Virus record (IMG/VR): IMGVR_UViG_641736224_000031
Origin: a virus
Taxonomy: Duplodnaviria > Heunggongvirae > Uroviricota > Caudoviricetes
Strand: one strand, 5' to 3'
Length of the DNA: 42,289 bases
Shown in pieces: positions 36,001 through 42,000 of the stretch (position 1 is its first letter; every line of letters starts with the position of its first letter). A program made the position numbers.

Positions 36001-39000
36001 TTATCCAGCCAACGGAAAATTTTCTGGGTATTACGAGCCAGGGCTTCCGGATGGCTGTCGTCGTACAGTTCCGGGAACGTCATCCCCAGCTCGAAATAAG
36101 TCCGGGCTATTTCAGCTGCAGGAACTTTCTCACCGTCCGGATAGGCCCAGGCATTGATCGCCATGCGGATGTGCTCATGTTTGATTTTCATGAATCCCCC
36201 TTTCCTTCGCCCTGAGTGGTATCCTTCTTTTTGTAAAGTTCTGGGTTCAAAGATAATTTCCCCTTGGAGTATGCAGCAGCTTCCGCAGCCCTCCCCTTCG
36301 GAACTATTTCACCAGGACGCTTACGCCACATGTAAATAGCTTCGCGGGTTATCCCATAAAAATCGGCAACCCTCTGAACAGAACCAAAAAACTGGACAAG
36401 TTCATCAACTCGCATTTTACCTCCTAAATCTAAGCATTTTTAGATTACAAGATAATTTTTTTTAGGTCAATGCAATCTAAAATAATTTATATTCAATTTG
36501 CAGGAGAAAATGATGGAAAGCCTTGGCTTCAGGCTTAAGAGACTTAGAAAAGATAAGGGGCTGACCCAAGTAGAACTGGGTAAGCTTTCAGGCGTGACTG
36601 GGGTTACTATAGGGTACTGGGAGAAAGATCTAAACGAACCAGGTAGCAAAGCTCTAAGTAAGTTAGCCCAGGCATTAGGAACTACTGAGTCCTATCTCCT
36701 ATATGGAGTATCGTCTCCTGAATTATCTTTTGTACAAAGTACCTCAGGCACCAAGATCCCCTACCTTTCGTGGGGTGAGGCGATTTCTTTCCTAATCTTA
36801 AAAGGAGAGAAAACAATGGGAAATGTCGATAGAATCACCACATTCTTTGATGTCGAGGAAGGTGATTTTGCCGTTTCAATGCCTGATGACACAATGCATA
36901 ACCCATCAGGATCACCGAGTATCCCAGTTGGTGCTACTGTGATCCTAAGGCCAGGAGAAAGTTATAAAAATGGCAGCATCGTCGCTGTAATAGTTCCGGA
37001 TCCGCTTAAAAATGAACCATCTATGACTATAAAGAAATTAGTTATTGATGGGAAGCTTGTGTATTTAAGCCCTCTCAATCCACGCTATCAGTCATCCTTA
37101 CTTACACCAGAGTGTAAAATTGTTGCCGTAGCAAAAGGTGTACAGTTCAACTTATAACCCGCCACGTCCTTTACTTGAGGTCGGCAATGCCGACCTTTTT
37201 TTTAAATTAATCTAGATTTACCTTGACTGAAAAACTAAATACTTTTAGATTTATTACATACCACCCTACCTCGCCCCACAGAACGTCGGGCAATACCTCG
37301 AGTTACCCGGCAGTGGTCAGGGGTTAAGTAGCCAGCCCGAGGCGTATGAACATGACGGCGGGAACACTTTGTATAACAGCGCAGCAGGTTTTTAGTTCCG
37401 CGACCCGGCGTTAAGGGTAAATGAGGTCAACATGGATATGCTCAATCTTGGCAACAATGAATCTCTGGTGTGCGGAGTATTCCCCAACCACGACGGCACG
37501 TTTACCGCGATGACGTATACCAGAAGTAAAACGTTTAAAACCGAAGCTGGCGCGCATCGCTGGTTAGCAAGAAACGCTAACTGATTAGCGCCAGTAAAAA
37601 CAGGTTTCCACAGGTTAATTTACCCTGAAAAGTCAGGGCATAACACGAAAGCGCACGGCGAAGTTAGTCTCTCTGTATAGGTCGTCGTTAAATTTAATTC
37701 GACCGTGCGCTTCTGGTTGTGGCAATCCGCGAAATGGCGCGGCGGTAAGTATGGCGGGGTTATTCCTTCCCCCGTTGAGGACACCGGGTTGTCAGGTTGA
37801 CCATACGCTTAAGTGACACCCCAGCCACAACAACCTCTGTTATCACTTTTCTGGTGATTCGGCGGAAATGGATATCCGCCCTTTTTAAAGTGAATTTTGT
37901 GATGCGGTGAATGCGGCTATGCGCACGCGGAACAGTTAAAGCAGTAAGGCGGTCTTTTACTGGCGTAACGAGCATCAACTAACCCGACGTTAATTGTTAA
38001 CTGGTTAACGTCACCTGGAGGCACCAGGCACTGCATCACAAAATTCATTGTTGAGGACGCGATAATGGAAACGTTATTACCAAACGTTAATACGTCTGAA
38101 GGTTGTTTTGATATTGGTGTTCTGCTCAGTAATAAAGCGTTTACTGAGGATGCCATTAATATGCGGAAATATGAGCCTTATCTGCTCAATGATAATTCCA
38201 TTCTTTCCCGAATTGCCCTTATTAAACTTGGTATTTTCGGAGAACGTCAATGACTTCAGCATTTGCACTGGTGATGACGGTTTTTCTTATAACGGGTGAA
38301 TCACAGAATGTTATTACCGGAATTTATGCCAGTAAAGAATCCTGCCTCCAGGCAAGAGACGAGCAAAAAATTTCTGGTGAATGCCTACCGGTAAAAAAAG
38401 TATCGCTGTACCTGAATAACGAAACACCGGCTGGATAACCCGCCAGCCATATTAACGCCATACCAACGGATTAAAAATGCCAGCAATGGCAGGGATTCGT
38501 TCACCCTGAAATCTGTAATGAGGTTAAAACACAATGAGTAAAATCTTTATTTGCGCTGCTATTCCTGACGAACAGGCCATAAAAGAAGATAGCGCTGTTG
38601 CGGTGGCCACTGCCATTGAAGCCGGTGATGAGCGTCGCGCACGCGCAAAATTTCACTGGCAATTTCTGGAGCAATTCCCGGCAGCTCAGGACTGCGCTTA
38701 TAAATTTATTGTCTGCGAGGATAAACCCGGCATACCCCGCCCTGCCCTCGATTCCTGGGATACCGAATATATGCAGGAAAACCGCTGGGATGAGGAGTCA
38801 GCTTCCTTTGTACCGGTCGAACCAGAATCCGATCCGATGAACGTCAATTTTGACAAGCTGTCCCCTGAAGTACAGAACGCAGTCCTGGTTAAATTCGACA
38901 CATGCGAAAACATCACCGTTGATATGGTGATTAGCGCACAGGAATTACTACAGGAAGACATGGCAACATTCGGCGGACATATCGTTGAAGCGTTGATGAA

Positions 39001-42000
39001 AATGCCAGAAGTTAACGCCATGTATCCTGAACTTAAACTGCATGCCATCGGGTGGGTTAAGCATAAATGTGAGCCTGGCGCTAAATGGCCTGAAATTCAG
39101 GCAGAGATGCGCATCTGGAAAAAACGTCGCGAAGGTGAACGCAAGGAAACCGGAAAATACACGTCTGTTGTTGATCTCGCCCGCGCCAGAGTCAACCAAC
39201 AGAACCCTGAAAACGCTGCTGAAAAAACCGGGGCTGTCACTGTTGCCATTCGCCGCGAATACAAACAGACATGGAAAACACTCGACAATGAACTGGCCTG
39301 CGCCCTCTGGCCCGGTGATGTGGATGCAGGAAACATTGACGGTACCATCCATCGCTGGGCGACAAATGAGGTTATCGACAAGGATCGCGAAGACTGGAAG
39401 CGTATCTCAGCATCAATGCGCAAACAGCCCGAAGCACTTGGCTATGACCGTCAGACTATTTTTGGCCTTGTTCGCGAACGTCCGATCGATATTCACAAAG
39501 ATCCCGTTGCACTGAACAAATATATCAGTGAATACCTGACGACAAAGGGCGTGTTTGAACATGAAGAAACAGACCAGAGCTCTACTGATGCTCTCCAGCC
39601 GTCAGCAGCACAAACTGCTCCAGTGGAGACGGCAGAATCCGATACTCAAAAAAATGAAATCCTGGTGGAAGCTGAACCATCTGTAGAGCGTGAAGGACCA
39701 TTTTATTTCGTCTTTACCGATAAGGGCGGGGAAAAATACGGCAGGGCAAACAAACTTTCTGGTCTGGACAAGGCGCTGGCTGCCGGCGGTACCGAAATCT
39801 CAAAAGAAGAATATTTTGCCCGAAAAAATGGCACATACACGGGCTTACCGCAAAATGTGGATACCGCTGAAGATTCCGAACAATCAGAGCCGGTAAAAGT
39901 TACCGCTGACGAAGTAAACAAAATTATGCAGGCAGCCAATATCAGCCAGCCTGACGCCGATAAATTGCTTGCTGCATCACGTGGTGAATTTGTTGAAGGG
40001 ATTAGCGACCCGAATGATCCGAAATGGGTGAAAGGGATCCAGAGTCGCGACGCTGAGGACCAGAATCAGCCCAACGTGAAACAAAATGAGCCAGAAGCGG
40101 AACAAAACAGCCCGGATACGCAACAAAACGGGCCAGAAGAACAACAACCAGAACCAGCAGTGCAACAGGAACTGGAAAAAGTTTGCACCGCATGCGGTCA
40201 GACCGGTGGCGGCAACTGTCCTGACTGTGGTGCGGTGATGGGGAACGCAACCTACCTGGAAACATTCGATGAAGAGAATCAGGCTGAAGCTCAGAAAAAT
40301 GATCCGGAGGAAATGGAAGGCACTGAACATCTGCACAAGGAGAACACTGGCAGCGATCAGTATCACGCCAGCGATAATAAAACTGGCGAAACAGCAAATC
40401 CCTTAATTAAAGTGAACGGTCATCATGAAATCTCATCCACCAGCAGGTTGTGGCACCATCTGATGATTGACCTTGAAACAATGGGAAAAAATCCTGATGC
40501 GCCAATAAACTCTATAGCCGGTAAGTTTTTTGATCCGGCAACCGGAGAGATGGGGCCAGAATTCAGCAAAACTATCGATCTGGAAACCGCAGGTGGGGTC
40601 ATCGATCGGGACACCATTAAGTGGTGGCTGAAACAGTCACGCGAAGCACAATCCTCCATTCTGACCGATGAAATCACGTTGGATGATGCACTGCTGCAAT
40701 TCCGGGAATTTATCGACGAAAACTCCGGTGAATTTTTTGTTCAGGTCTGGGGTAACGGTGCAACTTTCGACAACGTGATTTTACGCCGTTCATATGAACG
40801 GCAGGGGATCCCCTGCCCGTGGCGTTACACCAATGATCGCGATGTAAGAACGATGGTTGCTCTGGGACTGGTGATGGATTTCGACGCAAGAACGACTATT
40901 CCATTCGAAGGTGAACGCCATAACGCCCTGCACGATGCGCGTTACCAGGCAAAATACGTTTCAGCCATCTGGCAAAAACTGCTCCCGAGTCAGGCTGATT
41001 TTTAATGTTCAACCCGGATCGCCGCTAACGGCATATAGTTAGCGGCGGTTGTGAGATATAGCTATGAGCAGCATATTTTTAACCGAAAATGAATTGCAAA
41101 CGTTAACGGGCTGCAAATATGCAAGCCACCAGCGCAACTGGTTAATAAAAAATGGGCTTCCGTTCTATACCAATCGTAGTGGAAAACCGATCGTCAGTCG
41201 GGAACTGTTTACCTGTATAAAAACTTTACCACCACGTGAGGCTGAACCTGATTTCGGTGCGATCTAATGGGAAGACGAAGGAAAAATCCCGAACACGAAA
41301 AATTACCGCCAAAGGTATACCCCAATAAATATAGTGTATGGAAACCGACATCCAGAGAATCTGTAACCTTAACTGCAATCGAGGATGGTTTAGCCGCATT
41401 ATGGAAAAAGTATGAAGAAACGGTTAACCATCGCGATCGCGCAATGACATTTGGGCGTTTGTGGGAAAAATTTCTCGCCAGCGCCTATTACAGCGAGCTT
41501 AGTCCTAGAACTCAAAAAGATTATCTGCAACATCAAAAAAAGCTGCTGGCCGTATTCGGTAAGGTGCTGGCCGATTCTGTAAAACCAGAGCACATCAGAC
41601 GATACATGGACAAAAGAGGCGAGCAGAGTAAAACGCAGGCAAACCATGAAAAAAGCAGTATGTCGCGCGTTTATAGTTGGGGGTATGAGCGAGGATACGT
41701 GAAGGCTAACCCATGTGCAGGTGTAAGTAAATTCAAGGCCAAAAACCGCGAACGATATGTAACCGACAAAGAATACCAGGCAGTATTAAGCGTTGCACCT
41801 CTTCCTGTTTTTATCGCAATGGAAATTGCCTATCTGTGTGCAGCGAGGGTTTCCGATGTGTTATCGCTGAAATGGGAGCAGATTGGAAACGACGGGATCT
41901 TTATCCAGCAAGGGAAAACAGGGAAAAAACAGATAAAAGCATGGAGTCCACGATTACAGGCGGCGATCGAAAAAGCAAAACAGTTACCAACATCCGCCTA

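Follow-up and report, generated by a model that had tools for sequence, protein, structure and literature searches.

What kind of nuclease occupies the recE slot of a lambdoid prophage when no annealing protein stands beside it? The question is raised by IMG/VR virus record IMGVR_UViG_641736224_000031, a stretch of 42,289 nucleotides (nt) referred to below as the window. It is a lambdoid prophage of Escherichia coli O157:H7 with its integration site beside a tRNA-Ser gene and mtfA, and a prophage of strain PV15-279 shows 94-99.9% identity to most of it. Its early-left region contains an intact open reading frame (ORF) at positions 38534-41005 (+ strand), which starts with ATG and encodes a protein of 823 amino acids (aa). 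A reading of the sequence alone had placed at exactly these positions a large exonuclease with a C-terminal DEDDh 3'-5' exonuclease domain, a zinc ribbon and long acidic regions, and had found no partner gene for an annealing protein. We recover each of these features and, in addition, a homology with RecE that had been missed. Judged by its sequence, the protein is a RecE-family head-swap variant, one member of one mosaic family. We favour, with a probability of roughly 55%, the view that it is an exonuclease working by itself on DNA 3' ends and is not half of a two-component exonuclease/annealase recombinase.

A RecE-type scaffold with a DEDDh head

The sole catalytic domain detected by Pfam in the 823-aa protein is the Rv2179c-like 3'-5' exonuclease domain (PF16473) at aa 641-813 (E 3.6e-62), with a score of 209.6 bits against a cut-off of 27 and profile positions 1-177 of 177 covered. 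The DEDDh residues lie in the motifs MIDLET (D646, E648), ATFDN (D746) and HNALHD (H796, D801), which correspond to Exo I, II and III. None of the five columns varies when the domain is aligned with T4 DexA and with stand-alone homologues from phages, and each residue is kept in at least 204 of the 208 domain-bearing relatives. By sequence, the closest solved homologue is T4 DexA itself (PDB 8KEL/8KEN, E 1e-6).

The remainder of the protein is best understood by comparison with RecE, the exonuclease VIII of the Rac prophage and partner of RecT, which has the same layout of a long N-terminal region followed by a C-terminal nuclease head. In BLASTP searches against K-12 RecE, aa 262-625 align to RecE residues 278-591 (E 4e-59, 38% identity), and identity is about 80% from aa 470 on, zinc ribbon included. 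The homology ends at aa 625 (RecE 591), short of the RecE nuclease core, which begins at residue 606; the nuclease domain of K-12 RecE (residues 606-866) is recognised by Pfam as PF12684. No PD-(D/E)XK domain of this kind is found in the 823-aa protein by Pfam, and a tblastn search of the window with RecE 601-866 yields nothing better than E > 0.7. The NCBIfam RecE model NF007259 matches in part (260 bits against a cut-off of 1269), its best-matched stretch pairing aa 453-625 with model positions 446-602. At the DNA level the shared stretch is 76% identical to recE, and the exchange is therefore not recent.

The two proteins thus have in common a middle region, a Cys4 zinc ribbon and acidic linkers, and they differ at both ends. 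At the C-terminus, RecE has a PD-(D/E)XK 5'-3' head, whereas the window protein has a DEDDh head of predicted 3'-5' polarity. At the N-terminus, the RecE module is Exonuc_VIII (PF06630), for which Pfam gives no match in the 823-aa protein; this carries YdfE_N (PF27430) instead, together with YdfE_C (PF27432), both matches being taken from precomputed Pfam assignments and not rescored locally. A homology between YdfE_N and the Exonuc_VIII N-domain was considered and is unsupported (hhalign probability 0.07). The function of the RecE N-terminal domain is unknown according to a 2023 review (PMC11611040). The YdfE part has a counterpart in K-12, again overlooked before: the product of the pseudogene ydfE is 89% identical to aa 1-255 of the window protein. 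The contrast with recombination exonucleases drawn in the sequence-only reading is therefore correct for the head, which is DnaQ-like and has taken the slot expected for a PD-(D/E)XK nuclease, and incorrect for the protein as a whole, which is related to RecE.

For aa 1-640, the AlphaFold2 model obtained from an alignment of 90 sequences shows three confident modules (aa 1-205, 245-340 and 385-435) with acidic, low-confidence linkers between them. Its predicted local distance difference test score (pLDDT) is below 50 over aa 345-384, 438-457 and 498-640, and the zinc ribbon, whose counterpart in RecE is CNACGQTGGDNCPDCG, is not confidently modelled. Aspartate and glutamate make up 17.9% of the whole protein, lysine and arginine 10.7%. 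The parts of the gene are listed below, with ratios of non-synonymous to synonymous substitution rates (dN/dS) obtained by codon comparison with the genes of phages Tritos and PhiR42_1.

38534-41005, +, whole exonuclease gene, RecE-like scaffold plus DEDDh head (ORF, RefSeq, PHROG 2082)
38534-39148, +, N-terminal alpha/beta module, aa 1-205 (YdfE_N, PF27430)
39266-39553, +, helical module, aa 245-340, probably the region of Pfam YdfE_C (pLDDT about 88-91; dN/dS 0.16 for aa 201-340)
39554-39685, +, acidic linker, aa 341-384, probably disordered according to the model (pLDDT about 30; dN/dS 0.90; aspartate plus glutamate 25% in aa 361-400)
39686-39838, +, small beta-beta-alpha-beta-alpha module, aa 385-435, 'GPFY...GRANK...EISxEEY' (pLDDT 77-88; dN/dS 0.09)
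39944-40048, +, RecE-shared conserved segment, aa 471-505 (LLAASRGEFVEGISDPNDPKWVKG), near-identical to RecE 452-481 (dN/dS 0.05)
40178-40258, +, Cys4 zinc ribbon, aa 549-575, C551-x2-C554-x7-C562-x2-C565 (dN/dS 0.05)
40259-40453, +, acidic linker, aa 576-640 (dN/dS about 0.7; pLDDT about 30)
40454-41002, +, DEDDh 3'-5' exonuclease head of Rv2179c/T4 DexA type, aa 641-823 (PF16473; dN/dS 0.10)

The small module at aa 385-435 is a candidate partner-binding element. Its residues G388, P389, F390, Y391, R404, A405, K407, E421 and I422 are invariant across 90 sequences of scaffold proteins, whether these are DEDDh-headed or Rad52-fold-headed (see below). It aligns poorly to RecE in pairwise comparison and has no known fold relative.

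The RecT partner is absent together with the RecE head

RecE-RecT is a textbook recombination system and the workhorse of recombineering, and recT usually overlaps the end of its exonuclease gene. Linear-linear recombination is the single activity for which RecE is known to be required in full length. In Rac, recE is followed by recT, ralR and rcbA, none of which lies downstream of the window gene. More generally, we find no annealase there: none is annotated in the near-identical RefSeq prophage of PV15-279, tblastn searches of the window with RecT and a Rad52-like annealase reach E > 0.6 at best, and PHROG scans of ten early ORFs match no annealase family. A recT hidden in an overlapping frame was also considered and rejected, as the alternative-frame ORFs inside the gene span at most 157 aa and have no Pfam match. 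The claim that no RecT, Bet or Erf gene lies between the exonuclease gene and xis/int thus holds, and none was found in the rest of the window.

To place this locus among its relatives, we surveyed 84 viral contigs, using as annealase queries three RecT seeds, one Sak-type Rad52 seed and the Rad52-fold head described below. Downstream of PDDEXK heads, a RecT-family gene follows directly in all 38 loci with enough downstream DNA. Downstream of DEDDh heads, by contrast, RecT, Sak-type Rad52 or the Rad52-fold head is found in none of 40 loci; xis and int come next, and these belong to at least three different types. This suggests that the head and RecT come and go together.

Selection and prevalence

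The gene is under clear constraint. Overall dN/dS is 0.17 against phage Tritos, with values of 0.04-0.18 in every folded module, in the zinc ribbon and in the exonuclease head, and of 0.7-0.9, nearly neutral, in the acidic linkers. The low values of the folded modules indicate that the gene is functional, while the linkers behave as spacers.

It is also very common. The product is identical (100%) to RefSeq WP_000034457.1 ('exonuclease'), copies of which occur in many O157:H7 genomes, and matches PHROG 2082 over its full length. With megablast, DNA of the DEDDh head is detected at 7947 places, with as many as 7 in one genome, and 4049 (75%) of the 5426 complete E. coli genomes have it; DNA of the K-12 RecE nuclease head is detected in 1736 (32%) of the 5426, at 1827 places. 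The textbook RecE head is thus the minority form in the E. coli recE slot, and its commonest occupant is not a RecE-type nuclease.

Head exchange within a mosaic family

Among 1.84 billion representative proteins, 10,649 relatives were found. Pfam scans of the long ones, taken with K-12 RecE and the window protein, give the following module combinations.

Exonuc_VIII N-module with PDDEXK head: K-12 RecE
Exonuc_VIII N-module with Rv2179c-like DEDDh head: P0124, P0127, P0135-P0137, P0147, P0164
YdfE N-module with DEDDh head: the window protein
YdfE N-module with PDDEXK head: P0138
YdfE N-module with a C-terminal region of about 290 aa lacking a Pfam match: P0139, P0143, P0144, P0170, P0194

Proteins of the last type, from Klebsiella, Salmonella, Enterobacter and Citrobacter, bear the label 'exodeoxyribonuclease VIII'. 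Their C-terminal region is a third head with a Rad52 fold, as established by structure comparison alone: it scores 17.5 and 14.8 bits against Pfam Rad52_Rad22, under the cut-off of 20.3, its hhalign comparison with the mEp235 annealase is not significant, and a PDB profile search gives no match. The loci encoding these fusions have the order KilR, Gam-like gene, fusion gene, Sipho_Gp157, Exc and Int. YdfE-type N-modules thus occur with exonucleases of either polarity (5'-3' or 3'-5') or with an annealase, which ties the scaffold to DNA-end and recombination functions. As far as we could find, neither the head-swap pattern nor the Rad52-fold fusions have been described in the literature.

A 702-aa relative (P0129) has a fourth head on the YdfE scaffold, at aa 437-697, which matches only phrog_26058, a family of unknown function, and has no Pfam match. 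Variation is also seen at the other end of the protein. Phage 689R5, at the same tRNA-Ser/mtfA site, encodes an 814-aa version (L006:3672-6113) with an N-terminal part unrelated to that of the window protein, while the DNA of its middle region and DEDDh head shows about 85% identity to the window gene. Another contig (L026:4830-7274) encodes an 814-aa relative with an Exonuc_VIII-type N-module. These variants show that N-modules are exchanged, as heads are.

The protein itself is not categorically new, since it is already annotated in databases and such genes are briefly mentioned in one 2025 paper. In that survey of lambdoid phages, DnaQ-like nucleases are one nuclease type of recombination modules, lone DnaQ-type genes near int are excluded from the module and said to have an unknown role, and RecE-related proteins without a nuclease domain ('RecE-2') are likewise of unknown role (Zheng et al. 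2025, PMC12315714). The window gene is probably a case of the DnaQ-type nuclease near int, and by the definition used there the window has no canonical lambdoid recombination module. The scaffold/head mosaic, the link between head and RecT, and the Rad52 fold of the nuclease-less proteins are not part of that account. Our literature searches found nothing on Rv2179c-type domains in prophages, on ydfE function or on RecE with a DEDDh domain.

Gene neighbourhood and other features of the window

From the repressor to int, the early-left region encodes, in order, the repressor, DUF1391, dicB, DUF1482/ydfD, the exonuclease gene, a DUF4224 excisionase-like gene (xis) and the integrase, and nothing else. 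The excisionase-like gene starts 58 nt 3' of the exonuclease gene, with nothing encoded between them.

38065-38253, +, dicB, upstream in the same leftward operon (RefSeq annotation of the same DNA)
38250-38438, +, DUF1482/ydfD-like gene, same leftward operon (Pfam DUF1482; RefSeq annotation)
41064-41267, +, excisionase-like gene (Pfam DUF4224; PHROG excisionase)
41267 to the window end (42289), +, tyrosine integrase (RefSeq integrase)

The same dicB/ydfD/exonuclease gene order is found in phages Tritos and PhiR42_1, which are complete phage genomes, in 689R5, which is a partial genome, and in the K-12 Qin prophage. In Qin, what is left of the gene in this dicB-ydfD slot is the pseudogene ydfE, cut short at an IS2 remnant. 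No sigma-70-like promoter site was found in the 95-nt gap upstream of the exonuclease gene. Rfam gives no match for the DicF small RNA (sRNA) upstream of dicB, although in Tritos a DicF is annotated at the corresponding position. A sub-threshold copy of the STnc100 sRNA (29.5 bits) lies just upstream of dicB (37879-38097), and a match above threshold is located at 27120-27292 (-).

Elsewhere in the window, the early-right region contains a hok/sok-type toxin-antitoxin pair (31078-31402).

31228-31402, -, sok RNA (114.9 bits)
31078-31290, -, hokD-like ORF

The prophage also carries espJ and, beside it, a tccP-like effector gene with EspF repeats, whose tandem repeats (about 141 nt apart, 230-993) appear as staggered alignments against PV15-279. 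Relative to PV15-279, the window has an insertion of about 1.3 kb at about 23784-25091, inside which an ALIL pseudoknot (the frameshift signal of the IS3 family) is found at 24119-24235 (+). At its end, the insertion has a 229-nt stretch 100% identical to the IS1203 that interrupts the PV15-279 integrase gene. Unlike the latter, the window integrase ORF is uninterrupted up to the window edge.

Chi sites and a probable reliance on RecBCD

Lambdoid phages with neither a recombination system of their own nor a RecBCD inhibitor are rich in Chi on the strand where these sites are active if RecBCD enters at the right end (PMC12315714). In the window, shuffling predicts 2.0 +/- 1.3 Chi sites (GCTGGTGG); eight are present, spanning positions 17759-41133. 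Seven of the eight are on the - strand, which is the strand of late-gene transcription; one site lies inside the exonuclease gene (40437-40444) and one inside xis (41126-41133). This pattern agrees with that described by Zheng et al. 2025 for Chi-rich phages that lack a recombination system of their own. In addition, no gam- or abc2-like gene was found in the annotation of the near-identical prophage or in the scanned early ORFs. With no annealase, no recognised RecBCD inhibitor and oriented Chi sites, the phage probably depends on the RecBCD and RecA of its host for recombination-dependent growth.

A probable solo 3'-end exonuclease and its alternatives

Under the reading that we favour, a Mg2+-dependent DEDDh 3'-5' exonuclease would have taken the place of the PD-(D/E)XK 5'-3' nuclease of RecE, on a scaffold made of a YdfE-type N-module, a helical module, a small beta/alpha module, a RecE-type segment, a zinc ribbon and flexible acidic linkers. 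The swap would have taken away the nuclease head and the RecT partner together, so that the protein would not be half of a two-component recombinase. Being encoded by the last early-left operon gene before xis and int, it is probably made during lytic growth or induction, from the early-left transcript. It would hydrolyse DNA from 3' ends by means of two metal ions. Working by itself, it may shorten or remove 3' tails at breaks or at the ends of host or phage DNA, much as DexA does in host-DNA scavenging and break processing, and the role of the scaffold is probably to target or tether the exonuclease head. Of the two roles that the sequence-only reading had offered, DNA processing fits the evidence. 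The other, anti-defence, has no positive evidence: PADLOC, which models defence proteins only, gives no match, and the sole published claim about a homologue is one of defence.

T4 DexA is the natural reference for such an activity. It is a 3'-5' DNA exonuclease involved in host-DNA scavenging and in break-end processing during intron homing (PMC12153337). It belongs to the same PF16473 domain family as the window head, as does Rv2179c of Mycobacterium tuberculosis, and has the identical set of catalytic residues. However, it is a stand-alone protein of 227 aa from a virulent phage and is only 26% identical, whereas the window domain forms the C-terminal head of a scaffold protein of 823 aa and belongs to a temperate phage. 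Closer relatives are the stand-alone 182-aa homologues epsilon34 gp34 and mEp235 gp30 (53-55% identical to the window head). Like the window gene, they belong to early-left operons of temperate lambdoid or P22-like phages, and Zheng et al. 2025 count such nucleases as genuine components of recombination modules. Their modules are ordered Rad52-like annealase, SSB, Exo and Abc2; they thus lack a scaffold and lie between SSB and Abc2 beside an annealase, whereas the window operon has neither annealase, SSB nor a recognised RecBCD inhibitor.

Several points weigh against a solo DNA 3'-end exonuclease. The usual effect of 3'-5' DNA exonucleases, ExoI and ExoX among them, is to inhibit recombination (PMC12315714), and a recombination-promoting role is thus not obvious. 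The Pfam family PF16473 is named after an exoribonuclease, and an RNA substrate is possible. Eight Chi sites are close to the average density of the E. coli genome, and the 7:1 strand bias is only modestly significant. The surveyed loci are mostly closely related E. coli prophages, queried with RecT, Sak-type Rad52 and Rad52-fold head seeds only. Finally, no paper was found that tests this protein, YdfE or any fusion relative.

Four other explanations can be considered. The best-surviving one, which we nevertheless regard as unlikely, is that the protein is a prophage nuclease for anti-phage defence or superinfection exclusion, digesting incoming phage DNA with modified cytosines and sparing host DNA. 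Its model is EcD ('HREX'), a plasmid-borne, stand-alone E. coli homologue of DexA, which is reported to protect against T4 and to cut DNA containing 5-hydroxymethylcytosine, for which it is claimed to be specific (5hmC; PMC12153337). The window protein is of the same domain family, is E. coli-encoded and has the same catalytic residues, and its gene is extremely common, with up to 7 copies per genome, as is often the case for prophage defence genes. Two residues linked to such a function point the other way. DexA W152 is needed for 5hmC recognition, and the tetramer-forming D90 of DexA is replaced by Ala in EcD, its loss defining the 'defence' state (PMC12153337). In the window protein, the W152-equivalent position is Thr766 (in RYTNDRD), a variable position across the family (Y in 93 sequences, T in 47, W in 41), and the D90 equivalent is kept as Asp718, an assignment of moderate confidence given the low alignment identity in that stretch; around DexA D169, the alignment to the window protein is gapped. 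Thus, unlike EcD, the window protein is a scaffold fusion that lacks the signature Trp and keeps the Asp. Its gene is at the far end of a leftward operon expected to be under repressor control and has no promoter-like site of its own, and PADLOC does not recognise it. The fusion of the head to a RecE scaffold, and the location of its stand-alone relatives inside recombination modules, are further arguments against defence.

Slightly less credible is an exoribonuclease like Rv2179c, which would degrade or trim RNA at its 3' ends, for example in host or phage transcripts and possibly in the adjacent xis-int message. The family name, the label '3'-5' exoribonuclease' on many RefSeq copies of this protein and the position of the gene directly upstream of xis and int all speak for RNA. 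On the other hand, the nearest solved relative is a DNA exonuclease, the head stands where RecE itself carries a DNA nuclease, Pfam detects no RNA-binding domain in the protein, and the stand-alone homologues sit between SSB and Abc2 in DNA recombination modules.

We give still less weight to a recombination exonuclease that makes 5' overhangs for an annealase acting in trans, the product of another prophage in the same cell or of an unrecognised gene. It is true that several lambdoid prophages coexist in O157 genomes, the best-matching of which have 4-7 copies of this gene, that the scaffold is common to RecE, and that relatives fuse it directly to a Rad52-fold annealase. However, the loss of RecT in 40 of 40 DEDDh loci, set against its retention in 38 of 38 PDDEXK loci, is hard to reconcile with this explanation, and neither the annotated early regions of Tritos nor the early ORFs of the window offer an annealase. 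Finally, a functionless remnant born by deletion in a defective prophage is highly improbable: the near-identical PV15-279 prophage has several frameshifted structural genes and K-12 ydfE is a truncated pseudogene of the family, but the reading frame of 823 aa is unbroken, relaxed constraint is confined to the linkers, relatives retain the catalytic residues and full-length genes occur in sequenced phage genomes.

Implications

The 'exodeoxyribonuclease VIII' label sits on proteins with no recognisable nuclease domain, and a widespread annotation is corrected here. Natural head swaps also offer a direct experimental handle on the role of the scaffold. More tentatively, as a view that we consider possible and rather doubtful, the RecE and YdfE N-terminal regions could form a general platform that delivers or tethers phage DNA-end effectors with exchangeable heads. 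Besides the PDDEXK (5'-3') exonuclease working with RecT and the DEDDh (3'-5') exonuclease, these would include a Rad52-fold annealase and one or more other heads. The DEDDh version would then represent an annealase-independent 3'-end pathway in Chi-bearing, RecBCD-dependent phages, present in about three quarters of E. coli genomes. If the DEDDh variant does have a defined role in such phages, it would add to the proposed split between phages with and phages without a recombination system of their own.

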